A DNA stretch of 64,000 nt from Picochlorum sp. SENEW3. Taxonomy: Eukaryota. The stretch is taken from contig CP120458.1 in assembly GCA_034226945.1 (NCBI GenBank), forward strand, positions 124,001-188,000. Reading direction: 5' to 3'. The notes under the pieces are model-generated. The model saw nothing but the letters and a program-made list of their open reading frames with translations. It did not search any database and was not told where the DNA came from. Positions within the stretch are counted from its first letter, which is position 1, and every line of letters starts with the position of its first letter. Shown here in pieces: positions 15,677 to 55,989 of this stretch. The position numbers and the translations under genes were made by a program.

Positions 15677-16852
15677 TCACAGCTGCTCAAGCAACTTTTG
15701 TCCCATCTCTTTGCATCCAACCTGCTTGCACCCGTCCTGCATGATATCTCCAGTGCGATATCCAAGATCAAGGACTCCAGTCACTGCTGCCTCGAGATGG
15801 TCTGCAACCTTTGGAAGATCAAGGCCATATCGGCACATCATTGCAGCTGAGAGGACCATGGCCAGAGGATTTGCCAAATCCTGTCCAGCAATGTCAGGAG
15901 CTGATCCATGCACTGGCTCAAAGATACCTGGACCATCATCAGAAATGGATGCCGATGGAAGCATTCCCAAGGACCCAGTGAGCATGGATGCCTCATCAGA
16001 CAGAATATCTCCAAAAATATTTCCAGTGACAATGGTGTCAAACGACTTGGGATTACGGATGAGCTGCATAGCAGCATTATCAATGTACATGTGAGACAGG
16101 TCAACGTCTGGATACTCCTTCTCTCCAAGGGCAGTCACACTCTCTCTCCACAATCTGGACACCTCCAGAACATTGCTCTTATCCACCGAACACAATCTAC
16201 TGTTTCTTTTTCTCGCAGCTTCGAAGGCTACTCGGGCAATCCTTTGGACTTCAGACTCGCTATATACATCTGTATTGTACCCTATCCTCTCCCCATTCCT
16301 CTCTTCAATACCTCGTGGCTCTCCAAAGTAGATTCCTCCAACCAATTCCCTCACAATGAGAATATCCACCCCCTCCACCACTTCTCTCTTCAACGTAGAT
16401 GCATCAGCAAGCTGAGGAAGCACAATAGCAGGGCGCAGGTTGGCGAATGCATTCAAAGACGCACGCAGCCTCAGCAAGCCCTTCTCTGGCTTCATATCAT
16501 ATGGAAGATCGTCCCACTTGTATCCACCGATCGCCGCCAACAACACCGCATCACTCGCCTTGCAAAGATCCTCAGTTTCCTTTGGGTATGGATTATTGGC
16601 AGCATCAACCGCCGCACCCCCAATCAAAGCTTCAGTACACTCGAATGTCTCCCCTTCCTTCTTTCCAGCCTCTCTGAGAACCTCAAGGGCAACAGACATG
16701 ATTTCAGGCCCGATTCCATCCCCAGGAAGAACAGTAATGTTATGAGTAGCATGCATCGGGGCCACAATCACTCGCCTCTGTGCATTCCAATGCCGCCGAG
16801 ACATGGCCTGACCAATGCCGACATGGCTCTTCGCTGTTGATTTCATCATCAT
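15677..16852 (-). CDS. leuB: 3-isopropylmalate dehydrogenase, plastid-targeted
   Basis: [46 protein letters not shown] and [13 protein letters not shown] motifs, plus a transit peptide. Confidence 0.97.
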
Positions 16853-16884
16853 GGAAAATTACATTAATTGCTTATTATTATGTG

Positions 16885-17066
16885 ATGCAGCCACATGGTG
16901 CATGAGATCAGCCATCCCTCGCATCGGAACATGGTACTCCAGTCCAGTGTCCTGTGATATTCGACCACCCTGGAAGGACATGGGCTTGTTCAGGCAGAAT
17001 GCCACCAAATCCCATGGCACTTTATCAGTCATTGTTGATGCAATCTACAGCATCCATTTGGGAGCT
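16885..17066 (-). pseudogene. Orphan 182-bp copy of the 3' end of the NAD-dependent reductase gene (left direct repeat of the McrBC island)
   Basis: Aligns ungapped to 21171-21352 with 9 mismatches by my count (~95% identity). Confidence 0.95.
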
Positions 17067-17372
17067 ACATGATCTTACTATTTTAATTTAATGTATCGAT
17101 GTGGAGTTTTTCTGATCCAGGAAATGCAGGAAGGAAAAAGATGGAAATGCATGCATCACAGGAAAGTAGCCAAGAAAAACTGCATACTGTGAATCCTCTT
17201 TCAGTATTCTATGACTTGAGGTTTGCATGATATCATTGATTAGAAGGAAAAAGGGAAACACAATCATTTAGAGTCAAATTTATTCCACAAAAGCATAGAT
17301 GTTCTCCTGTATGATGGCCATGCATTTGGTGTGCTATTCCTTCCTGGAGATGTGTCAGATACTGAACAACAT

Positions 17373-19187
17373 CTACAGACGAGCAGCAGCGCTTGAAATT
17401 TGATCGTAAAAGTGCCTTATGATTTTGTTGAGTTTTACTTTGCCTTCGTCGTTTGACACATCATCAAATGTTATAATTGGTTGAGTGCCTGATCCTTTGA
17501 TGAATTTCGACACACCCCCTGATGACGAGGCTAGATTCCTCGTCCGATCATCATCGATTTGACTGATATTGTTTACTACTGGTATCACAGGATATATGGC
17601 TCTTCTAGTGTTGAAACTAGGATTGCTATATACATTGACTGGGCCATTCTCTGGCTGTCCTGCAACCAAGTAGATTGTTCGCAGTGTTGTGCTGTTTGGA
17701 CTCTTAAAATAGTCAAAAATGAGGTCTTTTCCTCTTTTTAGTGTTCCGTCTCGCTCTGGATCCACATAACTATTTCGGGCCACGAACCGGTCTTGCTGTC
17801 TCAAGGCCTCCCATTCTTTATCAGTGTGCTCATCATGCACTGACAATAGTACCCTGTAATCAGAAACAAGAGAAAATAAAGCATTTTCGGAATCTGTTAT
17901 CGGAACCAATTCTCTATTTCGCCGCTTCACTTCTGATACCAGTTTTCCAGGCATGATTCTGATTGGTCTGCGACGCTCTGTCTGTCTTGGTAAATCATTG
18001 TCATACCACTGTATTCTCCACCTCCTCATGATATCCCAGATCAGCTCATCAATGCTTGCCCCTGTATACCTCAAGGATAGACTACTCCTCAAGTTAGGCT
18101 CAATGTAATCATATGGATATCTATTCGGCAGCTCCAGAGAGAATATACTCTCGTCCAGGACAACTCTGGCTCCCACAAGTCTGTTTCCCCTCAATGCTGG
18201 ATCAACCATGAAGTCTGCAGTCTCACCCATAAAGTCGTCCCTGCATGGGTTGCCCGTCAAGATGATTCGAAAATTAGATGGAATGAAGTATAGATCATCA
18301 GGTGTAGTCGCCTGCCCCACATTGCCTTGCAAGATGTGAGGTCCCCAGTCATCCCTGTTATCCTCCATTTCCTGCCAGCTGTCTGGTCCATACGCCCTGA
18401 GCTCCTCCTCAAAGAAGTTTCCCAGCAGAGACATGAAATCACTCACTCTATTCCATTCATGTAGAATAAACACGTATCGAGAGTCGGGATGCGCACGGGC
18501 GTCGCGGATTATCGTAGACACAGGCCCCAAGTACTCCTGGCCATTGTGCATGTATCTGAACAGACGTTGCTCTGTCAAGGTGTTGCATCCATTGGTCACG
18601 ATCAGGTACCCACTATTGCTGTTGTTGGCTTCGGATATGTACATCATTGCTATTTGCTCCACCAGGGTCGTCTTACCGCTCCCTGCTCTTCCCTCAACGA
18701 GCATGATGCGATTATTCACCAGGTGATCAAAGTATGCTTTCAGGAAGGTTCTGCACCTGAGCTTTTGCTCATCCAAGTCATCCTCTCTCAAATAAAAGAG
18801 TTTTTCTCCGATGAAATCGAATTTATCGTCTTCGTGAGCAAGGTCAAGCAAGGTTTGACATGGTCGGCCCACTCTGCAAAAGGAGTGAATATCTAGAAGG
18901 AAAGTTCTTGCATTCTGGTCACCATGTGGTGCATGCGCATGTCCCTGTTGATGATGGGGCAAGCCCTCAATTTGGTCAGGCGTCACCACATTCGGCGGGT
19001 ATCTCCCCCCTCTTGGAGGACCTTCATCAGTTCTTGGCCTTACGTTGCGGCGAGGAGGAGGATCCGCTGCACCATGATGACGGTCATCATTCGCCTCTGC
19101 AGAGGCCCCAGCTGGGGCAACCCTCGCAGGTCGCCTCTGCCCAGAAACACCTTGAGAAGTGCCTGCACGCTCTCCGTCGCTCATCAT
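17373..19187 (-). CDS. McrB-like AAA+ GTPase (604 aa, intronless)
   Basis: Walker A IMLVEGRAGSGKT, McrB-type Walker B region YVFILHEWNR (canonical hhhhDEINR), IPSNFRIILTGNPCRDD (cf. lPeNl.iigTmNxxD) and DPALRGNRL (cf. D.AlrRRF). Confidence 0.75.
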   Translation of the reverse strand: MMSDGERAGTSQGVSGQRRPARVAPAGASAEANDDRHHGAADPPPRRNVRPRTDEGPPRGGRYPPNVVTPDQIEGLPHHQQGHAHAPHGDQNARTFLLDIHSFCRVGRPCQTLLDLAHEDDKFDFIGEKLFYLREDDLDEQKLRCRTFLKAYFDHLVNNRIMLVEGRAGSGKTTLVEQIAMMYISEANNSNSGYLIVTNGCNTLTEQRLFRYMHNGQEYLGPVSTIIRDARAHPDSRYVFILHEWNRVSDFMSLLGNFFEEELRAYGPDSWQEMEDNRDDWGPHILQGNVGQATTPDDLYFIPSNFRIILTGNPCRDDFMGETADFMVDPALRGNRLVGARVVLDESIFSLELPNRYPYDYIEPNLRSSLSLRYTGASIDELIWDIMRRWRIQWYDNDLPRQTERRRPIRIMPGKLVSEVKRRNRELVPITDSENALFSLVSDYRVLLSVHDEHTDKEWEALRQQDRFVARNSYVDPERDGTLKRGKDLIFDYFKSPNSTTLRTIYLVAGQPENGPVNVYSNPSFNTRRAIYPVIPVVNNISQIDDDRTRNLASSSGGVSKFIKGSGTQPIITFDDVSNDEGKVKLNKIIRHFYDQISSAAARL

Positions 19188-19675
19188 TACTTTTCCTCAA
19201 ATATCTCTTTCAAACTAGGATGTCTCGAAATATTTCTAGAATCGGTCCTCTCGAGACAGAGAAGAGGCCTTATTGTGGACCCCAGAAAATCACGACTGTA
19301 TTCTCTCCGGGATCGTTGCTTTCCCTTCTTCAATGTAACCACCAAGTGGTCCTTGCAAGGAAAGGAAAAAAAAAAGCAAGATACTTGCGATGCTGCTTTG
19401 AAGGGTGACGGAATACAGTGGTATACCAAAATTTTATTTGATTCCGTTGCTGTGGGGTGCCTGATTTAAAGCCGCTCTTGCCCCTACGCCTTTCTGAATG
19501 TCCCATCAAACCTGGATTCAGTGGGTGGTTGAGACTCGGTTTAGTCCCCCCCGGTACCGGGTCTAATCCAGTGTGGCGTGTGGTCTTCTATAGAATGTAA
19601 ATATGAGAAAGCCCGCATCAACAATTCCCAAAAACGAAATTCCTGATTTCTCGCCACATCTGGCTATACTTCGTA

Positions 19676-21010
19676 ATGGTCATCGTAAATTTTGAGGAGA
19701 GATTGAATAGACTATATTGGGCATACTCAAGCAGGTATGCTGCAGACGAGGAGAGTCTGGAGATGGATGATATGGAAAGGGATCTCGATATTGCAAGCAG
19801 AAATGATCCAAGGACAAATCCAAATAATCCACCAAGAACCAGATGGTGCGGAGCGGTTTTTGAACCAACCTCCTTCACATACATAAGCATCTTAGGAAAC
19901 GCATATAATGGGTACATTCAGCAAGAAGTCATCAACAGCTGGGTGAGGCATTCTGATATTACCCTGGATATACAAGAGCTTGGAGTTGCTTCGTACAAGG
20001 ATACTATAGAGTCAATATGCACAAATATCACAAACTCTGGGCCGCTTCCACGCTCAAGGCCTGAATATGTCCTTGGGGCTGCCAGGTATCCCCTCGGTGC
20101 CATCATCCACGGTCAAACTCTACCAACCGGTGAAAACGTGCAGCTGATACCTTCGATCAGAAGAAACACAAAAGTATGGATGTGTGTTCGCGCGTGTCTA
20201 CGATTGCTATGGAGAAGGCTATGTGAGGAACACGCTGCCTGCCAGCTAATACATGGTGGTCGATTGGAAGGGGATGTAGAAGCCGCTTGGCAAACCCTTC
20301 GAGATTTGGTTGCATCAACTGAGTATGGTTTACGATTGCGGGGTGTTACCAAAACGATAGGAGAAGAGAATGCTACCGAACTGTTGAGTCAAATATTGCA
20401 GAGATGGCAGGGTGCTCATGCACACAGGAGCATTTTGGAGGACTTGAAAATGGTCTTGTCCGGGGAACATGCATCTAATAGAATGTTAGATGTTGAATCC
20501 ATTCCACCTCGTATCAATCCAGAGTACCTCGTATGGGGTCCTCATCTCTTTGAGAAAGCACTCAAAAGAGAAATCTCTGACCAGCTAGCTACAAACAATA
20601 ATGAATTCAGGGTGCGTGGTAGCCCTGTAAACTTTGACTGCGTGCATGACAGTACCATTCGTCTTCGACCAGATATTGTGATAGAGTCAAGCGAGACACA
20701 GGGAAGAATCTTAGGGTGCATCGATGCCAAATTGTACAGAGAGATAGACAGGTCAGACACCTTTGCATTTGGGTTGAAAATGGATGTGTACCTCTCGTCG
20801 TGTGAGCGAATTAATCGAAGCGAACGAAAGCTTAAAGGCGTGACATTTGTGGGCCTGTATGGAGAATCTGACCAAACAGATAATCACGCATGGGAAAGAG
20901 GACATCATATGATTTGTTGCCTTCACTTGTATGATAAAAACTTACGAGAAGTTCAGGAAGACTTTGTTGATACGGTTAGAAATGCATTGCGATTTTTACA
21001 AGTATTATAG
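19676..21010 (+). CDS. McrC-like PD-(D/E)xK nuclease (444 aa, intronless)
   Basis: C-terminal LFEKAL ... IRLRPDIVIE ... CIDAKLY ... D...KMDVY matches the McrC pattern lFE..v / lrPDiv / iiDaKYk / D.yQm.aY in order and spacing. Confidence 0.72.
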   Translation: MVIVNFEERLNRLYWAYSSRYAADEESLEMDDMERDLDIASRNDPRTNPNNPPRTRWCGAVFEPTSFTYISILGNAYNGYIQQEVINSWVRHSDITLDIQELGVASYKDTIESICTNITNSGPLPRSRPEYVLGAARYPLGAIIHGQTLPTGENVQLIPSIRRNTKVWMCVRACLRLLWRRLCEEHAACQLIHGGRLEGDVEAAWQTLRDLVASTEYGLRLRGVTKTIGEENATELLSQILQRWQGAHAHRSILEDLKMVLSGEHASNRMLDVESIPPRINPEYLVWGPHLFEKALKREISDQLATNNNEFRVRGSPVNFDCVHDSTIRLRPDIVIESSETQGRILGCIDAKLYREIDRSDTFAFGLKMDVYLSSCERINRSERKLKGVTFVGLYGESDQTDNHAWERGHHMICCLHLYDKNLREVQEDFVDTVRNALRFLQVL

Positions 21011-21168
21011 CAATGATCGCATTACAACTTTGACCAAAAAATGATGTTTTGTCAACCAATAGAAGAAGAAAAACATTGCACTCTGTAGAGTCTCTATGAA
21101 GACTGACAGATGGATATCTAGAGCATAAACCTTCAATTGAAAACACAGAAGTACTACTACTGTAGTAT

Positions 21169-22251
21169 CTATGCACCCACATGGTGCATGAGATCAGCCA
21201 TCCCTCGCATCGGATCATGGTACTCCAGTCCAGTATCCTGTGATATTCGACCACCCTGGAAGGACATGGGCTTGTTCAGGCAGGATGCCACCAAATCCCA
21301 CGGCACTTTATCAGTCATCTTTGATGCAATCCACAACATCCATTTGGGAGCTCCTAGTCTAGGGAGTCGATGCTTTGGAAATTCCTGTCGAAGAGATTGG
21401 ATCACATCCCTCATCCCCAAGCTATGCTGTCCATGGGCCAGAATGTAACGACCATGACAGTTGCTATTCATAGCAACCAAGATGTGCGCCGACGCTACGT
21501 CATCCAAATCCACATATGGAAAGTGATAGTTGGGTATACATGGCCACAGCTTCCCTTTCATCAACAGCGTCGCAAACTCGACCAACTCGCTCTTCACCTG
21601 CGTGACTGGTGGCCCCACAACAAACCCTGGAAGAAGGACCACCAACCTCCATGGTTTTCTACTGCCACCATCCTTCTGACTCTCATTATATAAATCCCAC
21701 GCCCTCTTTTCCGCCAAGACTTTGCTATACGCATACGGAAACTTGGACAGAGATGCCACCTCATCCCAATCTTCCTCTGTATACACATGATCAGCCCCCC
21801 GCTCCCAATTATCCCCATGCACCGCCGACAACGACCCCGTATACACCAATGTATCCACTGTCCCTGATCTCTCTATAGCTCCAACCACATGCTCCACCCC
21901 CTCCACAGCAGGGCGAATCATCTCCTCCTCCACCTGCCCCCGAGCAACCCTCACCGTCACCGGAGAGGCCACATGGATGACCACATCACACCCACGCACA
22001 GCCTCATCAAACGACCCCTGCTCTCTTAAATCTGCTTGAAATAGTTGTAATCGATCCTTGGCTCCATCCATCGCCCTCATGGTATCGTATCGAGTGTCTT
22101 TTGGATTGCTTCGAACGGTTCCATGAACCTTATGCCCAGCACGCAGTAATCTCTCAACAATAGCCCCACCGATATACCCACTGGCACCAGTCACACAGAA
22201 TAATCTTTTATGTGTGGCATTGGATTCATCTGGATAGAGTGGAAGTCTCAT
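21169..22251 (-). CDS. NAD-dependent epimerase/dehydratase, dihydroflavonol-4-reductase / cinnamoyl-CoA reductase-like
   Basis: CVTGASGYIG Rossmann motif, HVASPV, YAYSKVLAEK (YxxxK) and VDLDDVASAH. Confidence 0.9.
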   Translation of the reverse strand: MRLPLYPDESNATHKRLFCVTGASGYIGGAIVERLLRAGHKVHGTVRSNPKDTRYDTMRAMDGAKDRLQLFQADLREQGSFDEAVRGCDVVIHVASPVTVRVARGQVEEEMIRPAVEGVEHVVGAIERSGTVDTLVYTGSLSAVHGDNWERGADHVYTEEDWDEVASLSKFPYAYSKVLAEKRAWDLYNESQKDGGSRKPWRLVVLLPGFVVGPPVTQVKSELVEFATLLMKGKLWPCIPNYHFPYVDLDDVASAHILVAMNSNCHGRYILAHGQHSLGMRDVIQSLRQEFPKHRLPRLGAPKWMLWIASKMTDKVPWDLVASCLNKPMSFQGGRISQDTGLEYHDPMRGMADLMHHVGA

Positions 22252-22942
22252 TCAGGATTTGAGGAAATCTGGTTGTTGGAACTGAATTGCGACACGCACA
22301 GTGTGGTATATTGGTCACAACTATTAATGGTATTCAAAAATACGAATAGTGCACTATTGTGATTGCGTAGGTATATCTGTCACAAGGAATGTACAGGTGA
22401 AGATTTGACCAGACACAGGGACTGGCAGGGTGTGAGATCTAGCAAAGCTGTTGCAACCATGGCTTGAACCCTGGAATTCTATTCGAAGGTATCAAATCTA
22501 GAAGAACTATATACCGGTATAGGGCTCTGGCCAGAGTGCTCCATGGAGCACCAGATATCCTGATCTACGTAACTAAGTAGAGCCTCAAAGCAGCCTTGCT
22601 GTCTCAGGGTCTCCAATTCTTTATGCTTACTTATCATTTCACAGTGAAATATTCAAACTGCAGTCTGACAATCCTGTCTAATTCTGATTTGTGATTTGAA
22701 TATTTACACCTGTCAAACAGTTTCAAATGTATGCTTATATCTACATGAAAAGCCAAGCATTGTGGCCCAAGATCACAGAGGAGGAGTTGACTCACATCAC
22801 TATGACTATGCCCTTACTACGACATGGAGCTGCTAATCAAGTGATACATGTGACTGCCAATCCATAGTAACTTAGCTCCTCCCTAACTGAAAAATTATTC
22901 ACGTTTCTTGAACTCTTCAGATTATCAGAAACACAATTCAAC

Positions 22943-50436: not shown

Positions 50437-51456
50437 TTAGCCTACATGGCGATGCTTACCATCATAGACAAATGAACGAGCTCTGAGAACAAATGAGCTC
50501 CACACCCGACTTTTTCTGAACCATTGAATATGCCTCAAGTATGCTGCCATGAGAGTGACAGGGATAACAATCTTGATTGTTATGGCTGCTATATTCTGTC
50601 CTTCCTGAATAGAGTACTCCATTCCCCTGACGCCAGACAAGATATCATCTTCGTCAACTATATCGAAAATATTGGGATCGTATTCAATTCCATCCTCGGC
50701 AAAATTTAAGCAGCGCTCCACTTGTGCTTCAGTCCACGAAGGAAAAGCATTGCACCTCTGCTTTAACTCTGGAATGATTTTTTTTTCTAAAAGACCTTGC
50801 AGATCATTCTGTTCTTCCTTTTGTTTCCTTTCTTCTTCTTCTTTTTGTTTCCTTTCTTCTTCCTCCTTTTGTTTCCTTTCTTCTTCTTCCTTTTGTTTCC
50901 TTTCTTCTTCTTCTTTTTGTTTCCTTTCTTCTTCCTCCTTTTGTTTCCTTTCTTCTTCTTCTTTTTGTTTCCTTTCTTCTTCTTCTTTTTGTTTCCTTTC
51001 TTCTTCTTCCTTTTGTTTCCTTTCTTCTTCTTCCTTTTGTTTCCTTTCTTCTTCTTCTTTTTGTTTCCTTTCTTCTTCTTCCTTTTGTTTCCTTTCTTCT
51101 TCTTCTTTTTGTTTCCTTTCTTCTTCTTCCTTTTGTTTCCTTTCTTCTTTTTCTTCCTCTTTTTCTCGACTGCCTCTCTCTTGAGGATCCTGCTGCATCT
51201 CTGGGACCTTTTGTTTGACGTTCTGCAAGAGCCGAGTACTCGCACTAGTGCGGGTTCTTTGCTTGATAGCAGCGTTCAGCTTCTCCTGCTCGATATCAAT
51301 CAATTTGACCTCGGTCACCGCTTGATGCAGTAAATTTTTTGATTTTGTTTTATGGGTAGAATCAATTGTTTGCCTTGCTGCCCAATTATCGATTCCACCC
51401 ACGGGTATAAAAGACGTCCAGGGGAAGCAAGCTAGTAAACATAGCATTCGTATCAT
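50437..51456 (-). CDS. Hypothetical membrane protein with charged (KQKEEEER)n repeat
   Basis: 339-aa intronless ORF with an N-terminal hydrophobic segment, a charged repeat and a C-terminal TM (IAAITIKIVIPVTLMAAYL). Confidence 0.6.
   Translation of the reverse strand: MIRMLCLLACFPWTSFIPVGGIDNWAARQTIDSTHKTKSKNLLHQAVTEVKLIDIEQEKLNAAIKQRTRTSASTRLLQNVKQKVPEMQQDPQERGSREKEEEKEERKQKEEEERKQKEEEERKQKEEEERKQKEEEERKQKEEEERKQKEEEERKQKEEEERKQKEEEERKQKEEEERKQKEEEERKQKEEEERKQKEEEERKQKEEEERKQKEEQNDLQGLLEKKIIPELKQRCNAFPSWTEAQVERCLNFAEDGIEYDPNIFDIVDEDDILSGVRGMEYSIQEGQNIAAITIKIVIPVTLMAAYLRHIQWFRKSRVWSSFVLRARSFVYDGKHRHVG
50812..51147 (-). repeat. 24-bp tandem repeat, ~14 copies, encoding EEEERKQK
   Basis: Directly visible (TTCTTCTTCYTTTTGTTTCCTTTC)n on the + strand. 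Confidence 0.95.
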
Positions 51457-51851
51457 TCTGGCCAGAGCTCCGAATCTATCTAGTCTACTTCACTAATAAT
51501 GATTCAACAAAAGTTGAAATACAGAGGAAGATGGGGATCAGAACAAAATTTTTGTGGCCATTCCTCCGCTTGCTGCAAGAAGGCACAAAAACGGTGAACT
51601 TGTGTTGTACGCTATGTTTAGGCTTCCTTCTGCAAAGATAGAATGTTTTCGATCAAATTTAAATCTATATATGTTTGTCATGTGCATGATCCGTATCCGC
51701 GACGTATGGGGAGAAATTTCACAAGGAAATCAGTCGCACTTTATGAAGATGACAATGATGTGCCTCTCGCCGGCGCCGGCCGCGGCCGGGGTCACACGCG
51801 CGTGTGTCATATGGTGCATACGCATACCACTGGCCACTAAGGGTATACCCT

Positions 51852-52124
51852 AGTAGCCGAGGCGCTCTGTGGAAAACGTAGACTGTGGCATGTAAGGAGT
51901 GAGTTTTTAGTGGGTGCAACCCCCACATCACCTGAGCCCACAGGCCGGCACCTGGGCATGCTTGGCCTCATGCACACGTGGTAGACTCCATCCGGTCAAG
52001 GTTCTCTTGATTCGGGAGCCCTGCTGGGAGGACCACCTGCATTTGAGACAGCAGGCCAACTCCGTGTCAGTAGTATTTTTGCACACCTTTGTATGCTTAC
52101 AGAACCAAAAAAAAAAAAAAGGAA
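51852..52124 (+). mobile_element. Retroposed insert (SINE or 5'-truncated non-LTR element) with poly(A) tail and 13-bp target-site duplication
   Basis: AAGGGTATACCCT occurs at 51839-51851 and 52125-52137, and an A14 tract at 52107-52120 lies just before the second copy. Confidence 0.7.
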
Positions 52125-52736
52125 AAGGGTATACCCTTACCCAAGTATGCATGTATTACATGATTTTATATCAAAGCTCCCTGACCAGGTTGCCTCTAGA
52201 TATCACTCAGCAACGAAGCAGTGATATTGGGAGCAAACTTGACAGTACCATGGATTTAAATCCAAATTTGCCATGGAGACATCAAGAGGACCACAGGGAG
52301 AGCCAGTGCTTGAATTATTATTCCAGGTGTCATTTGCCTGCAACGCTGCTGAGCAATCATTGGCCAAGTGTTGAGGCCGTGTGTAAATTTTTTTTGAAAA
52401 GCAATCCCTCCCATCTTTCTTCTGTAATAACACAAAACTGGAGCTAAACATGATCGATCTCTTCCAATAATAAAGAGAGTATGCTGGATGCTCGTGTTGC
52501 CCTGAATTGGAATGAGTTATCAGTGGAGATAACTGACAGACGAAAATATGATAATATAGGGCGAAACTTGAAGAAGTGTCTATCTGTGAGCTATCAAGAA
52601 GCATGTGTGGCCTGTTCCTCGATATCATGAGCTGGTGGAGAACACATTGGATTTCAATGCTGTAGACAATCTTATACAAATGACAGCCAGGGATCTTGCG
52701 AGATCGCCATGATGGATTTATTTCAAAAATTGGTAA

Positions 52737-53522
52737 GGGCGGATCAAGTCGATTGTGGGTTTTCTATTAGCCCCGCCCATAGGATTTTCTAAGAATTGGA
52801 CCTGATTTTGTAAAGTGATAATTTGAGCCAAATCCACCCTAAATGGGCTTTGAACAACCCTTGCGGTGCATTTAAGCATCCTACACGCCGACAAATGTCA
52901 TTAGGTACCCGGGGAAAGCCTCAATAATGATAAAATACGGCAGAGCCTGGATCTGCATCTCAGCTTCAGATCTGTCACAGAGACAACCTGAAGTGGGTCG
53001 ATTTCCAAGGACATTCCGAGCATAAAACATATTTGATACTTTTTGTAGATATTGAGTTAACAAATTGGGTTTGGGGCGAAGGAAACAGCTGAAATCACAT
53101 TGAATGCGAAGGGGCATGGTCAAAAGGAGTTTGAATTTTGCACTGTGTCGACATCTCTCTCGTATCTGGCGTGAAATCGAATGCCAAATGCAGATTCTGT
53201 ATATCTTGGTGTATCATGAGAGTATTTGGGGATGATGAACCTCTGAAAATTCCCAAGGGCTGTGGGGCACAAGGCTCGTACAGAGGACATGCTATGGACA
53301 GTGATCCAGGCAAGATTCCTCCACACAGGATCAGCCAAGCGACCATGTTTATTATGTTTGTGCACTAGGATATGCATACGCATTGATTCAGAGGTTTTAA
53401 GAGGCGATTGGATGCCAGCTTGGCACCTTTATCAAATTATCAATTATTAAAAGACGCCCCGCTCCCCCATAGGATTTTTTTGAAGTCACTAATAGAAAAC
53501 CCACAATCGAGTTGATCCGCCC
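52737..53522. mobile_element. PIF/Harbinger-type non-autonomous DNA transposon (MITE), 786 bp
   Basis: 34-bp TIRs GGGCGGATCAA[G/C]TCGATTGTGGGTTTTCTATTAG at 52737-52770 and 53489-53522 (1 mismatch), flanked on both sides by TAA. Confidence 0.85.
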
Positions 53523-54345
53523 TAAAAAAGATCATGCACCCGAGCCATAAAACAATTCGTCAATGACTTACTGTAACAGGAACTAGAAACATAGGAGGTG
53601 AAGCAGAATTGTTGCAGTTTATCTGGAACATATGTTCACCTCCTATGCATACTGTGATCCTGAACAATTGTCGGTACCACAATTACTCTAGAAAATTAAG
53701 AATGTTTCATTTATGTTGGTAGAGCAGTAAATCCATACGTGCCAGCAAAGAGCCCTTGCCCTGGTTTGCAAATGAAACCACAGCATGGCATGCCAACAGC
53801 ATGAGTTTGAATTCAAGGCCTTCGAATTCGAAGGCCTCGTCGGAAGATTTCTGTTGGAATCAAGTCCCCCTGGGGAATCCTAGAAGGATTGCATTTGATC
53901 CACTATCAATTTTTACTCGTCAAATGCACCCTCAAATCTCAAGCAAGTGATTTCACGTCATGACGTAAATATACGTCAACGCCCTGCATGCCCTATTTGC
54001 AGACCTGCACATTTAGAGTCTAGACAACCCCGATCGGGGATAGCCTCCGTACGGTGATCTCGCGATATCGCGATCGCTAAATTTTCAGTTGCCCTAGATG
54101 TCTCTTGTCGTAAAACTCTACATTCAGGTATAATGGACAATTATTGTTGGAAAGTTATTACTTTTTCCGTTGTCTCGAAGAGATATTCGACGACATCATA
54201 TATTTAGTCGCGGCATATTGCACCGCAGTATATACTGCTAGCAGAAACTCAACAGGCGAGGTCGCCGGCGCTTTTATAAGACTAATTAGGTGTTCATCCG
54301 CAAATTCTATATACTAGTATTGGTTCATAGTGGAATCGGTATTGG

Positions 54346-55989
54346 ATGGAGGATTCCAGCGAACGGGGAACAAGGAAGGAGTACGAGGGGACGAACTCTC
54401 ATTATTATGATCATTATCATTACGGCCGTAATGCCCGCGGGCAAAACTACCATACAGTGCCCGGAATGGCTAGCATGCAGCACGGAGCAACCGTGTACGC
54501 TGATGCCGGTCCTTATCAAATATATCCATATATGTATTATGTAAATTGTGTACCATACCCACCATGGTACGCATCAGAGTATCAGGGGTCGCTGCAGGAA
54601 GATCACAATGCCAGTCATACACCCAGTGCTATTGCCATTGGTGGTAATCAAGAGAAGGGTAAACGATCTTCAAAGCGTCGACCAATGAGGTCTTCAAAAG
54701 CTATTATTGGCGCTCCGAATCTCTTGAGAAGTGAGAAGTCAGCTATTTCATCGATTATTGGCCTCTCTATTCCAGATAAAGAGTTTCAAATGCGTGAGCA
54801 GGAATTTCAGATGCCTCTGCATGAGTCACTATCTATGGAGGCGGCCCATTATAAATTTATTTCTTTGGAAATATATAAGAAGGGCAGTGAAGATATCAGT
54901 AGTGTGGCGTTGAATGGCGATGTTAGAAAGTTGGACCGTGATGTGGTGCGACGACTGGCATTTCACCAGGAAGGGTCCAAGGCACTGCAGAGAATGATCC
55001 TATCGCATGTCAAGGTACATGAACTATCAGAAATATGTCGATCATCTCAAGGGACGGAACCTACACCACCAAGAGATGAATCACAGCAGTTTATTAATCA
55101 GATGTATGATGCCCTATCCAAAGATATTGTGAACTTATGCCTGGACATGTACGGCAATTATACAGTGCAGTGTTTGCTGATGCATGCATCTCCTACTGTT
55201 GTAGCAAGCCTAGGAGACATGATAGTGACACACGTTGTGCCACTCTCTTTGAACTTTTATGGTTGCAGAGTGGTCCAGTGTGCCATGGAACATCTGCCCA
55301 TGGAGTATAGATCTAAAATGTGTGACGCCTTAGAACCACTTGCATTACACTGCCTTCAAAGTCAGAATGCCAATCATGTGATTGATGGTCTTCTGACGTT
55401 ACCTTGGAGAGACAGACCAGCTCATGCAGTGCAAATACATGCGTCCATATGTCGCCATGCCCCTCTCTTGGCGACGCATAAGTACGGAGTAACCGTATTA
55501 GACACTGCATTGGAGTCTGATATTGCTAAGAATGTATCGAAAGAAGCCACCCAGCGTCTCCTTCAGATATTGGGTGACCTAATCTATGACGAGTTTGGGA
55601 ATTATCTGATCCAGAATTTGATACAATCGAATCTATACGGGACCCGTCGTGCTGTACATGAATTTCTGTTGCATTGTCCTCTGTTGACACTGTCCTGCGA
55701 TAAATTCGGCTCAAATGTCTTTGAAACTTCTCTTTCGAACAGTACACAAAAACAGATTGATGCAGTAATCACCACATTCCTTCAGCAATGTCAGGCTGCA
55801 GGGCAGATCGATGAGGTAGTAGCCAATGTATCTATCGATAGATATGGAAACTATATCGTTCAGAAGATGCTGGCGATGTCATCATTTAGACTTCGTCAGT
55901 TATTGTTCAGCCACCTGGCACCACATAGCGCCATGCTTATAGAGAGCAAGCATGGCAGGCACACTGCCAAACAACTCCTCGGAATATGA
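54346..55989 (+). CDS. Pumilio/PUF RNA-binding protein
   Basis: Repeats HQEGSKALQ, DMYGNYTVQ, NFYGCRVVQ, SQNANHVI, HKYGVTVL, DEFGNYLIQ, DKFGSNVFE and DRYGNYIVQKML. Confidence 0.92.
   Translation: MEDSSERGTRKEYEGTNSHYYDHYHYGRNARGQNYHTVPGMASMQHGATVYADAGPYQIYPYMYYVNCVPYPPWYASEYQGSLQEDHNASHTPSAIAIGGNQEKGKRSSKRRPMRSSKAIIGAPNLLRSEKSAISSIIGLSIPDKEFQMREQEFQMPLHESLSMEAAHYKFISLEIYKKGSEDISSVALNGDVRKLDRDVVRRLAFHQEGSKALQRMILSHVKVHELSEICRSSQGTEPTPPRDESQQFINQMYDALSKDIVNLCLDMYGNYTVQCLLMHASPTVVASLGDMIVTHVVPLSLNFYGCRVVQCAMEHLPMEYRSKMCDALEPLALHCLQSQNANHVIDGLLTLPWRDRPAHAVQIHASICRHAPLLATHKYGVTVLDTALESDIAKNVSKEATQRLLQILGDLIYDEFGNYLIQNLIQSNLYGTRRAVHEFLLHCPLLTLSCDKFGSNVFETSLSNSTQKQIDAVITTFLQQCQAAGQIDEVVANVSIDRYGNYIVQKMLAMSSFRLRQLLFSHLAPHSAMLIESKHGRHTAKQLLGI

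Follow-up and report, generated by a model that had tools for sequence, protein, structure and literature searches.

EcoKMcrBC of E. coli K-12 is encoded by two genes, one for McrB, an AAA+ GTPase, and one for McrC, a PD-DxK nuclease whose N-terminal half contacts the McrB ring; it is represented by structures 6ut6 and 6hz4. Other AAA_5 proteins, such as the dynein AAA modules, MoxR/RavA, and CbbQ/NorQ, have the fold common to this AAA+ subclass, and we know of none in these families that is paired with a PD-DxK nuclease. In addition, LlaJI/LlaI-type systems are described as McrBC homologues, and those of the LlaI type as having three genes and site-specific recognition, in a recent report (10.64898/2026.08.31.748284). 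An Nx(xx)D signature has been defined for McrB-like GTPases, of which NxxxD is a rare insertion variant (Bell et al. 2024, PMC11090510). The gene pair presented here resembles EcoKMcrBC in that one gene encodes an AAA+ NTPase and the other a nuclease, but differs in its host, which is a eukaryote.

A divergent gene pair in a Picochlorum chromosome

The pair lies in the chromosome of Picochlorum sp. SENEW3, in a window of 64,000 nucleotides that was analysed as a whole, and consists in the ORF listing of two uninterrupted, adjoining frames arranged head-to-head (Table 1). The initial annotation had reported two intact neighbouring ORFs and quoted a set of motifs in them, which was confirmed, with every motif located at the residues given in Table 1. 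From its geometry, the spacer between the two start codons is presumably a shared bidirectional promoter; the algal genes are divergent, whereas those of EcoKMcrBC form an operon.

Table 1. Features of the gene pair and its surroundings. Positions are those of the window.
Feature	Position	Strand	Residues	Remarks
Left direct-repeat copy, 182 nt	16885-17066	.		95% identity to 21171-21352
ORF1, predicted McrB-like AAA+ NTPase	17373-19187	-	604 aa	ORF listing
ORF1 N-terminus, disordered, Pro/Gly/Arg/Ala-rich			1-~98	AF2 pLDDT <50 at 1-98
ORF1 AAA+ core plus lid			~110-429	VIA-align model range 110-429
Walker A GRAGSGKT	18669-18692	-	166-173	Opposite GPPGVGKT of E. coli McrB
Walker B-like FILHEWNR, His replacing canonical Asp	18447-18470	-	240-247	Opposite FIIDEINR of E. 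coli McrB
Quoted ORF1 motif IPSNFRIILTGNPCRD			302-317	Located in ORF1 translation
Sensor-1/signature region TGNPCRDD	18234-18257	-	311-318	N313 opposite Asn of McrB NTAD (hhalign)
DPALRGNR	18180-18203	-	329-336	Opposite VDYALRR-R of E. coli McrB in a low-confidence extended alignment only (hhalign, mact 0.05), without posterior support in that stretch
ORF1 variable C-terminal extension, ~170 aa			~430-604	AF2 pLDDT <50 at 430-580
Spacer between divergent start codons	19188-19675	.		488 nt; geometry
ORF2, predicted McrC-type PD-DxK nuclease domain at C-terminus	19676-21010	+	444 aa	ORF listing
ORF2 N-terminal domain, family-specific			1-~285	Without detectable McrC similarity
ORF2 C-terminal domain, predicted McrC-type PD-DxK nuclease			~287-441	hhalign against McrC profile
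ORF2 predicted nuclease core: helix LFEKAL, strands LRPDIVIE and CIDAKLY	20546-20737	+	291-296 (E293), 330-337 (D333), 348-354 (D350, K352)	Opposite RLYEKF/TDI/IIDAKYY of the E. coli-type McrC consensus
Reductase CDS	21169-22251	-		NAD-dependent epimerase-like (Pfam)
Right direct-repeat copy, functional 3' end of reductase CDS	21171-21352	.		Homology starts at stop codon

The eukaryotic setting claimed earlier also holds: 16 of the 18 long ORFs scanned in the window match Pfam families that are typical of eukaryotic nuclear genomes or at least compatible with them, and the families present include nucleoplasmin-FKBP, CCT/TCP-1, U-box plus WD40 (Prp19-like), Rad17, XMAP215 TOG, Pumilio, and protein kinases. 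The database proteins closest to the pair come from Picochlorum sp. BPE23, where a contig of 2,287,937 nt carries them, and are labelled "hypothetical protein". The five genes nearest (FKBP, leuB, ORF1, ORF2, and the reductase) are each one long ORF, and ORFs with non-ATG or mid-domain starts suggest introns elsewhere in the window. The composition of the pair is native-like, with GC, GC3, and codon-usage likelihood of both ORFs within the range of 18 neighbouring genes. The same neighbours recur in a contig from another organism's run, which joins the end of ORF2 to the 3' end of the reductase gene.

A 182-nt direct repeat brackets the pair at a spacing of 4286 nt, and its left copy repeats, in decayed form, the final ~61 codons of the reductase gene, with an in-frame stop (W to stop) and several replacements. 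ORF1-like relics are found at 22562-22624 (78% to 17759-17821, E 7.6e-8) and, on the opposite strand, at 52546-52659 (70.6% to 17996-18114, E 2e-8), together with a weak HMM match to ORF1 at 52454-52627 (E 0.13). There is no second full copy of the pair in the window.

Similarity of the two proteins to McrB and McrC

Profile comparison and structure modelling both indicate that ORF1 is specifically McrB-like. In hhalign, the ORF1 family profile (10 sequences) matches E. coli McrB with 95.4% probability (P 1.9e-8) over 140 columns, which pair the two proteins through Walker A, the intervening insert, Walker B, and sensor-1, whereas for the nine further E. coli K-12 proteins that match AAA_5 best, the probability is at most 43.6%, over 53 columns. 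Among these ten AAA+ controls, McrB stands out by at least 4 orders of magnitude in P; the loci that we take from their coordinates to be YehL and RavA score 29.4% and 0.7%. McrB chains are also the best structural counterparts: those of 6ut6 and 6hz4 account for five of the ten best Foldseek matches of the ORF1 AF2 model (best E 1.1e-6), whose mean pLDDT is 47.5 and ~75 in the core, and VIA-align gives a Z of 13.4 for 6ut6_A (rmsd 4.9, 218 aligned) and of 12.8 for 6hz4_A. Dynein AAA modules come close behind (Z up to 11.2, Foldseek E ~4e-6). In the ESM Atlas, the feature clusters for ORF1 are annotated AAA_5, and nine of the ten structural matches listed carry PF28529 McrB_lid. The AAA_5 score of ORF1 is 13.9 bits, short of the cut-off of 22, and its best matches in curated libraries are to STAND/NACHT models and cover the P-loop alone.

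Within the ORF1 family alignment (n=10), F240, I241, L242, H243, E244, N246, and R247 are invariant, as are N313, D329, A331, L332, N335, and R336. Walker B reads HE in ORF1 as opposed to DE in McrB, and as this His stands in place of Asp in all 10 family members, the chemistry of the NTPase could be altered or even gone. The signature likewise has the form NxxxD, as opposed to NxxD in McrB, with an Asp at +4 from the sensor-1 Asn in eight of the ten family members. This is a likeness to the NxxxD branch of McrB-like proteins, which is prokaryotic and methyltransferase-associated (PMC11090510), whereas no methyltransferase gene adjoins the algal pair in the ORF listing and Pfam scan of the window. 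Compared with McrB, ORF1 is also without an N-terminal 5mC reader of the DUF3578/ADAM type and has a disordered basic N-terminus and the variable C-terminal extension instead; no known DNA-reader or modified-base reader domain was found in the pair.

The C-terminal domain of ORF2 is likewise McrC-like, pairing with the McrC nuclease domain with the predicted catalytic E/D/D-x-K retained. The whole ORF2 family (17 sequences) matches an McrC alignment (34 sequences) with 89.2% probability (P 2.2e-6, 144 columns), and the C-terminal halves alone with 95.7% (P 9.4e-9, 138 columns), against P values of 0.28 and 0.11 in crossed controls of the halves (all hhalign). The N-terminal ~285 aa differ from McrC in that similarity to the E. 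coli-type N-terminal domain was undetected by hhalign (P 0.11). As a single sequence, ORF2 prefers McrC (P 6.7e-4) to Mrr (0.29) and HsdR (0.54). ORF2 itself has no match in Pfam, NCBIfam, or PADLOC, and three of its 17 relatives match PF10117 below cut-off (E 2.6e-4, 3e-4, and 1.9e-3), at profile positions ~212-311 of 318. In the family alignment (n=17), P332 and D333 hardly vary, and the rows that extend over D350 and K352 retain both; the AF2 model, of low confidence (mean pLDDT 34.9), has a helix at 287-305 and strands at 330-338 and 345-353. Among the 30 nearest ESM Atlas matches of ORF2, 20 are LlaJI restriction endonuclease clusters (score 0.96, 201 of 256 features shared) and seven are McrBC clusters, a result that is a lead and comes without alignment or E-value. 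No match to PF09563 (RE_LlaJI) was found in the pair or its relatives by hmmscan at E up to 1, and the three-gene organisation given for LlaI-type systems is not seen at the algal locus.

The homology proposed in the initial annotation, an McrB-like AAA+ protein with an McrC-like nuclease, is thus borne out by the two profile matches and by the structural ranking. It had named best matches to MoxR, midasin, or dynein and the lack of a PD-(D/E)xK fold as the opposing outcome; McrB ranked above dynein, and ORF2 matched the McrC nuclease domain. Its wording that the motif sets define McrB and McrC was too strong: profile-profile homology stands, but no curated model reaches its cut-off, Walker B carries His for Asp, and ORF2 shows no detectable counterpart of the N-terminal domain of McrC. 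The horizontal acquisition that it put forward is conjectural, as are a defence or toxin function and modification dependence.

A small family and its divergence

The family is tiny, with 18 matches among 1.84 billion representatives, and searches that included these representatives, IMG/VR, and 50,697 phage records yielded neither a donor nor any close relative in prokaryotes or viruses. In Picochlorum BPE23, the two genes also adjoin (M9434_002745 and M9434_002744, on one 2.29-Mb contig). More distant relatives, ~51% identical, are probably linked as well, as judged from equal contig sizes: the reported Logan contigs measure 3665 nt for both P0003 and P0013 and 5726 nt for both P0004 and P0015. 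At ~50% identity, full-length open frames and catalytic residues are kept.

Closer relatives diverge unevenly. ORF1 is 98.3% identical to P0001, and P0002 differs from it at 0-7 positions per 40 residues in the core but at 21-30 per 40-residue block (26-39 compared) in the C-terminal part. ORF2 relatives within Picochlorum show 77-90% mutual identity, and P0010 and P0011, both from BPE23, 82.2%. At the sequence level, the polymorphism of ORF2 and the divergent C-terminal part of P0002 have the flavour of conflict genes. Among the 40 of 418 strain differences listed, 21 fall inside the ORFs, 12 of them synonymous (ORF1 5/10, ORF2 7/11). As the sole hint of transcription, one 167-nt contig in an oligo-dT metatranscriptome matches 18956-19122 with 1 mismatch at a depth of 2.4, and may be DNA carry-over.

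Possible roles of the pair

The locus combines homology in both catalytic domains with conserved catalytic residues, linkage at several loci, and a native eukaryotic context. On balance, we lean towards the reading that the pair is a eukaryote-resident, highly diverged derivative of an McrBC-type restriction module, most likely serving to defend the nucleus against foreign DNA or to survey it for such DNA.

One may argue that a selfish or mobile island carries the pair, or that the pair is itself such an island, i.e. an addiction-type or homing-type nuclease module that serves itself and not host defence. The direct repeat around the pair, the short ORF1-like relics elsewhere in the window, the small and patchy family, and the deep divergence between ORF2 alleles recorded under a single strain name all fit this, but we consider it unlikely: no transposase, integrase, or terminal inverted repeats are seen in the island, the repeat is a target-derived gene fragment rather than an element-derived one and could be break-repair filler DNA, and the single full copy in the window, the native composition, and the recurrence of the same neighbours in another organism's run also speak against it. 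Slightly more doubtful is co-option into some process of the nucleus itself, such as repair, recombination, chromatin/methylation surveillance, or programmed DNA cleavage. Native codon usage and the divergent-promoter layout suggest long residence, the Walker B His could mean altered, regulatory use of NTP, and one report records co-option of an McrB-family protein in bacteria, S. aureus PcdA (PMC10602043). However, the family is missing from nearly all other sampled eukaryotes, unlike a core process, the catalytic residues of the nuclease are kept, and the unusually high polymorphism of ORF2 from strain to strain suits a conflict gene better than a housekeeping one.

Capture from an algal large DNA virus, virophage, or phage-like element, with a possible use in superinfection exclusion, seems less probable again. 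The best ESM Atlas feature clusters are virus-dominated (the top-ranked one for ORF2 is 95% viruses, and six of the ten listed for ORF1 are mostly viral AAA_5 clusters), and two distant relatives have fusions of kinds that are common among proteins of protists and giant viruses, P0015 with an OTU protease and P0022 with DUF285 repeats. Nevertheless, tailed phages make up most of the viral taxa in these Atlas clusters, and by the tool's own caveat such taxa are no proof of transfer; moreover, two IMG/VR pattern scans gave 26 and 32 pattern matches with 0 confirmed, tblastn against the phage records found no match, and the BFVD fold matches are generic AAA+ proteins. Finally, the likeness to McrBC might be superficial, with ORF1 another AAA_5/STAND-type NTPase, ORF2 an unrelated PD-(D/E)xK protein, and their adjacency due to chance. 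The sparse curated-library matches, the nearness of dynein to McrB, and the ORF2 N-terminus unlike McrC point in this direction; these observations, together with the Walker B His, the missing modified-base reader domain, and the weak structure models, also count against the reading that we favour. Superficial likeness is nonetheless very improbable, given how far McrB stands out among the AAA+ controls, the preference for McrC over Mrr and HsdR, a McrC profile match that spans the whole nuclease domain, and the fact that ORF1 and ORF2 independently indicate the same two-gene system and are linked at several loci.

If the pair is indeed a diverged McrBC-type defence module, then by analogy ORF1, as an McrB-clade AAA+ NTPase, would form a ring and hydrolyse NTP, and ORF2 would dock on this ring, yielding a complex that cuts DNA through its PD-DxK domain in an NTP-driven manner. 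Both genes would be transcribed from the common divergent promoter and not as an operon. The proteins would localise to the nucleus and act there in defence, on foreign DNA such as that of giant viruses of algae, which is methylated in many cases; genome methylation and DNA methyltransferases that are strain-specific are described for these viruses (PMC13196603). The choice of target may lie in the fast-diverging, lineage-specific parts, namely the C-terminal extension of ORF1, the N-terminal domain of ORF2, or both. Hence, a bacterial-style DNA-cutting defence machine may operate in a eukaryotic nucleus.

The gene pair and its chromosomal setting

The McrB-like protein (ORF1) and the McrC-like nuclease protein (ORF2) are encoded head-to-head in two uninterrupted frames, with 488 nt separating their start codons. 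The initial annotation had described the pair as an apparently complete McrBC-like GTPase and nuclease module and proposed that it was acquired horizontally, and every motif quoted there in its support was found at its place in ORF1 or ORF2. Its placement of the pair in a eukaryotic chromosome is likewise borne out, as 16 of the 18 long ORFs scanned match Pfam families, among them nucleoplasmin-FKBP, CCT/TCP-1, U-box+WD40, Rad17, XMAP215-TOG, Pumilio and protein kinases. The base composition, GC3 and codon-usage likelihood of both ORFs lie within the range of 18 neighbouring genes, and none of these measures marks the island as foreign. The divergent order would fit a eukaryotic bidirectional promoter. 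The polyadenylation signal TGTAA is absent downstream of ORF1 and ORF2, an observation that is uninformative since 9 of the 18 neighbouring genes lack it too. Elsewhere in the window, a 339-aa ORF (50437-51456, minus strand) holds a long near-perfect tandem array of the peptide EEEERKQK, which is a low-complexity repeat on both strands.

Coordinates of the gene pair, the flanking repeat and the putative ORF1 relics
Feature	Position	Strand	Size	Description
ORF1	17373-19187	-	604 aa	Uninterrupted frame, from the ORF listing
ORF2	19676-21010	+	444 aa	Uninterrupted frame, from the ORF listing
Direct repeat (left and right copy)	16885-17066 and 21171-21352		182 nt	95% identical, 4286 nt apart; brackets the gene pair
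Putative ORF1 relic	22562-22624		63 nt	Between the reductase gene and a trypsin-like protease gene; 78% to 17759-17821, blastn E 7.6e-8
Putative ORF1 relic	52454-52700	opposite	~120-190 nt	~70-75% to 17960-18150, blastn E 2e-8

The right copy of the direct repeat is the last 61 codons of an intact reductase gene (NAD-dependent epimerase-like), with homology running from its stop codon, and the left copy lies 33 nt upstream of the start codon of leuB on the other flank. The left copy carries an in-frame stop (W to stop) and several replacements, and is thus a decaying duplicate, that is, a pseudogene fragment. In translation, the 63-nt segment beyond the reductase gene shares 13 of 22 residues with ORF1 aa 457-478 and appears to be left over from another ORF1-like copy. 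The second, more distant segment, whose resemblance to ORF1 DNA centres on 52546-52659, falls in a stretch of ~2.9 kb (51456-54346) without long ORFs, is matched weakly by the ORF1-family HMM (E 0.13), and may be a decayed second ORF1 copy. An insertion that duplicated its target, a larger duplication of which remains survive, or break repair with templated filler could each have left the repeat and the relics. As an account of the two relics, the simple tandem duplication of a unit made up of reductase, ORF1 and ORF2 was rejected, because the spacings (4286 vs 4803 nt) and the gene lengths do not fit it unless extra deletions are assumed.

Contigs from two sequencing runs, the gut-metagenome run X5 and the run X7 of another organism, cover 30 of 30 bins of the locus (16500-21700); runs X15 and X20 leave 10 and 25 of the 30 bins uncovered, which is no evidence of absence. 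A 1244-nt contig of X5 and a 1238-nt contig of X7 reach from within the left copy of the repeat into ORF1, and a 538-nt contig of X7 joins the end of ORF2 to the 3' end of the reductase gene, with 65 replaced letters between. None of the 30 pieces listed (207 more exist) bridges leuB and the left repeat, and no empty-site contig, with a skip of 4286 nt, is among those listed, contigs being unable to show absence. A joint from 16860 to 20889 (skipping 4028), present in a single contig of X5 and a single contig of X7, has a side of 24 letters only and was discarded as a short chance or repeat match. The RNA-labelled runs cover small shares only. The oligo-dT metatranscriptome X20 contributes a single contig of 167 nt within ORF1 (one mismatch, depth 2.4), which is at most a hint of ORF1 transcription.

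Homology to McrB and McrC

In Pfam, ORF1 has sub-threshold P-loop matches only: nSTAND and NACHT appear at E ~1e-4 and AAA_5 (PF07728) at 13.9 bits (E 0.055), below its cut-off of 22, and eight of ten ORF1 relatives match AAA_5 at E <=1 (best E 0.022). NCBIfam and PADLOC, like Pfam, do not name ORF1, and scanning the ten ORF1 relatives does not change this. On their own, these curated libraries would have spoken for a STAND-like protein rather than for the McrBC assignment of the initial annotation. In hhalign, the ten-sequence ORF1 profile aligns with E. coli McrB over 140 columns at 95.4% probability (P 1.9e-8). The alignment starts at the helix before Walker A and covers GRAGSGKT/GPPGVGKT, the segment preceding Walker B that is typical of McrB, FILHEWNR/FIIDEINR and the insert that follows, as far as IPSNFRIILTGNP/VPENVYIIGLMNT. 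As an AAA+ control, the ten E. coli K-12 loci that match AAA_5 best, McrB among them, were compared in the same way, and McrB alone stands out, the best of the nine others reaching 43.6% over 53 columns. Two of these loci, which we take from their coordinates to be YehL and RavA, give probabilities of 29.4% and 0.7%.

GRAGSGKT (aa 166-173) of ORF1 has the P-loop pattern GxxGxGK[ST] and is aligned to GPPGVGKT of E. coli McrB. In Walker B (hhhhDE), FILHE of ORF1 stands opposite FIIDE of McrB and keeps its Glu, whereas His replaces Asp in all ten relatives, so that DE of McrB is HE throughout the ORF1 family. At sensor-1, the invariant N313 is aligned to the Asn of NTAD in E. coli McrB, and the Asp is found at +4 in 8 of 10 rows, the exceptions being the relatives P0006 (Asn) and P0008 (Gly). 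According to a census of McrBC systems, Nx(xx)D is the McrB signature motif and the NxxxD form is rare (PMC11090510). ORF1 carries this signature only as the rare NxxxD variant, in contrast to NTAD of E. coli McrB.

The AF2 model of ORF1 has a mean pLDDT of 47.5 overall and ~75 in the core. In Foldseek, McrB chains of 6ut6 and 6hz4 take five of the top ten places (best E 1.1e-6), and VIA-align gives Z 13.4 for 6ut6_A (218 aligned, rmsd 4.9, chain 165-419, core and lid) and Z 12.8 for 6hz4_A, with dynein AAA modules as the runner-up family (Z <=11.2). The AAA+ core and lid of ORF1 are therefore predicted to have an McrB-like fold, with a modest margin over dynein. ESM Atlas leads point in this direction too: the feature search gives AAA_5 for ORF1, and nine of the ten structural rows listed are McrB clusters that carry McrB_lid (TM ~0.4). 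A PDB sequence search with the ORF1 profile returns only P-loop matches and, along the Walker B stretch, McrB at E 0.035-0.12, and a viral fold search (BFVD) returns generic AAA+ proteins only. Unlike bacterial McrB, ORF1 has no recognisable N-terminal reader domain: no modified-base reader or DNA-binding domain appears in Pfam at E <=1, where the 25 listed of 26 matching families are all of P-loop NTPase or helicase type. Residues 1-98 are rich in Pro, Gly, Arg and Ala and predicted to be disordered, and ~170 residues after the lid are without an assignable domain.

For ORF2, Pfam (including PF10117 at E <=1), NCBIfam and PADLOC give no match, and HMMER with its close-family profile finds only 18 proteins among 1.84 billion representatives. 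The 17-member family alignment shows three conserved elements: a helix with LFE at its end, a PD strand and a strand with (I/V)DAK(L/V)(Y/K). PF10117 (McrBC) is matched by three of the 17 relatives at 17.6-20.5 bits, under the cut-off of 23.9, at profile positions ~212-311 of 318. An McrC profile was built from 34 sequences picked among 120 listed E. coli McrC relatives and spread over 29-99% identity. Against it, the whole ORF2 family profile scores 89.2% (P 2.2e-6, 144 columns) in hhalign and the C-terminal halves alone 95.7% (P 9.4e-9, 138 columns), and crossed comparisons of N- and C-terminal halves, made as controls, give P 0.28 and 0.11. With single sequences against the ORF2 family, McrC reaches P 6.7e-4, and the PD-(D/E)xK proteins Mrr and HsdR reach 0.29 and 0.54. 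In the alignment, E293, D333, D350 and K352 of ORF2 sit on the McrC columns of a conserved E, D244, D257 and K259; D244, D257 and K259 are the catalytic set of E. coli McrC, in whose alignment D244 and K259 are invariant and D257 nearly so. On the ORF2 side, D333, D350 and K352 are kept in every covering row of the family alignment. The ESM Atlas feature hits agree: 20 of the 30 are clusters of LlaJI restriction endonucleases and 7 of 30 are McrBC clusters.

The docking half of McrC is unrecognisable in ORF2. Its N-terminal 285 residues show no similarity (P 0.11) when set against the N-terminal half of McrC of the E. coli type, the single McrC branch used as reference, and contain strongly conserved, family-specific blocks (LPRS.P.Y..AAR.PLGA..HG..LPTGE.LQL). 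The AF2 model of ORF2, from a 6-sequence alignment, has a mean pLDDT of 34.9 and is too poor for fold comparison. PDB sequence searches with ORF2-family profiles yield no matches with one alignment (A3) and nothing relevant with another (A4); in the latter, a putative hydrolase (E 0.0084, helical middle part) was regarded as a chance match and a designed coiled-coil peptide (E 7.3) as not relevant. A complex prediction for ORF1 residues 100-440 with ORF2, run without family alignments (score 0.00, mark 0.34), has no bearing either way.

The homology claimed in the initial annotation is well supported by profile comparison, which singles out McrB (95.4%) and McrC (95.7%, C-terminal halves), and both ORF1 and ORF2 very probably descend from an McrBC-type module. 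By analogy, ORF1 would form a ring NTPase that activates ORF2 as a docked PD-DxK nuclease on DNA. The His-Glu Walker B and a docking domain that escapes recognition weaken this analogy.

Relatives, linkage and divergence

As in McrBC, the NTPase and nuclease genes are linked, being adjacent in the window and in Picochlorum sp. BPE23; however, bacterial McrBC is a co-directional operon and the algal genes are divergent. The closest database proteins are hypothetical proteins of BPE23: P0001 shares 98% (98.3%) identity with ORF1, and BLASTP gives 86% identity to ORF2 for both P0010 and P0011 (~88% over aligned columns); P0001 and P0010 have consecutive locus tags on a 2.29-Mb contig. P0012, a partial gene model from another Picochlorum genome, is 90% identical to ORF2. 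Judging by identical contig size and source, the relatives P0003 and P0013 (3665 nt), and likewise P0004 and P0015 (5726 nt), are probably also paired, and P0003 and P0013 are each ~51% identical to their window counterparts. That frames stay open and catalytic residues persist at ~50% identity points to long-term constraint. Two distant ORF2 relatives have additional domains, an N-terminal OTU cysteine-protease domain in P0015 (E 2.5e-5) and C-terminal DUF285 repeats in P0022 (E 2.7e-34), indicating that the nuclease module is fused to varied accessory domains in other organisms.

Within Picochlorum, ORF2 proteins share only 77-90% mutual identity, with 82.2% between the two BPE23 entries. 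The ORF1 relative P0002 differs from ORF1 at 0-7 positions per 40 residues in the AAA+ core and is mostly different after residue ~340. Of 418 strain differences, 40 were listed; the two ORFs account for 21 of the 40, of which 12 are synonymous, in a small and incomplete sample. Two records of X7 (27 and 28) are diverged versions of one ORF2 stretch (19936-20333) and show 40 and 22 differences, respectively, over 386 nt. Loose ends at 18191 in X7 and X15 belong to an ORF1 version that diverges sharply in DNA downstream of residue ~332, and its first loose letters still encode NRLVGARV. The diverged ORF2 versions (X7) and the ORF1 loose ends (X7, X15) suggest deep allelic lineages at this locus, and the fast-diverging, lineage-specific parts of ORF1 and ORF2 are candidates for target recognition.

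Origin and possible role in the alga

A horizontal origin of the pair, as proposed initially, is plausible. No donor was found, and nothing close to the pair turned up in 1.84 billion representatives or in prokaryotic, viral and metagenome scans. In particular, no relative was confirmed in IMG/VR (two scans), JGI metagenome contigs (two scans) or GTDB genome contigs by near-exact peptide patterns, which do not prove absence, and tblastn of phage records confirmed no relative of the pair. A study of horizontal gene transfer in Picochlorum lists 26 bacterial candidates (PMC6141220), and the word 'endonuclease' is absent from its main text, although its supplements could list such genes.

A defence role is suggested by the known biology of the family, the polymorphism pattern and the report that algal giant viruses methylate their DNA (PMC13196603). 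A fuller scenario, which we put forward tentatively and consider rather unlikely as a whole, is that Picochlorum and a few unsampled relatives carry a nuclear, eukaryote-adapted, McrBC-derived and NTP-driven restriction nuclease, in which the recognition parts, namely ORF2 and the C-terminal extension of ORF1, are maintained as deeply diverged alleles through an arms race with methylated giant-virus or other foreign DNA. If this scenario is true, bacterial-type restriction would act as innate immunity in a eukaryote, with His-Glu as a new Walker B chemistry and a new domain that docks nuclease to motor. Restriction systems are seen as weapons of prokaryotes (and viruses). The McrBC census is described as covering prokaryotes (PMC11090510), and no linked McrB-McrC pair in a eukaryotic nuclear genome was found described in the literature, where the supplements of two sources (PMC11090510, PMC6141220) could list some.

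Mechanistically, the His-Glu Walker B and the docking domain, which cannot be recognised, are of interest for AAA+ nucleases, and the pair, whose function is putative, would interest those who work on the prokaryotic roots of eukaryotic immunity. If active, it may account for barriers to transforming this industrially used alga with methylated plasmid DNA, and would offer a tractable alga in which restriction of viral DNA according to its modification status can be tested in eukaryotes. An active pair would also be a new class among the bacterial immune modules that eukaryotes reuse.
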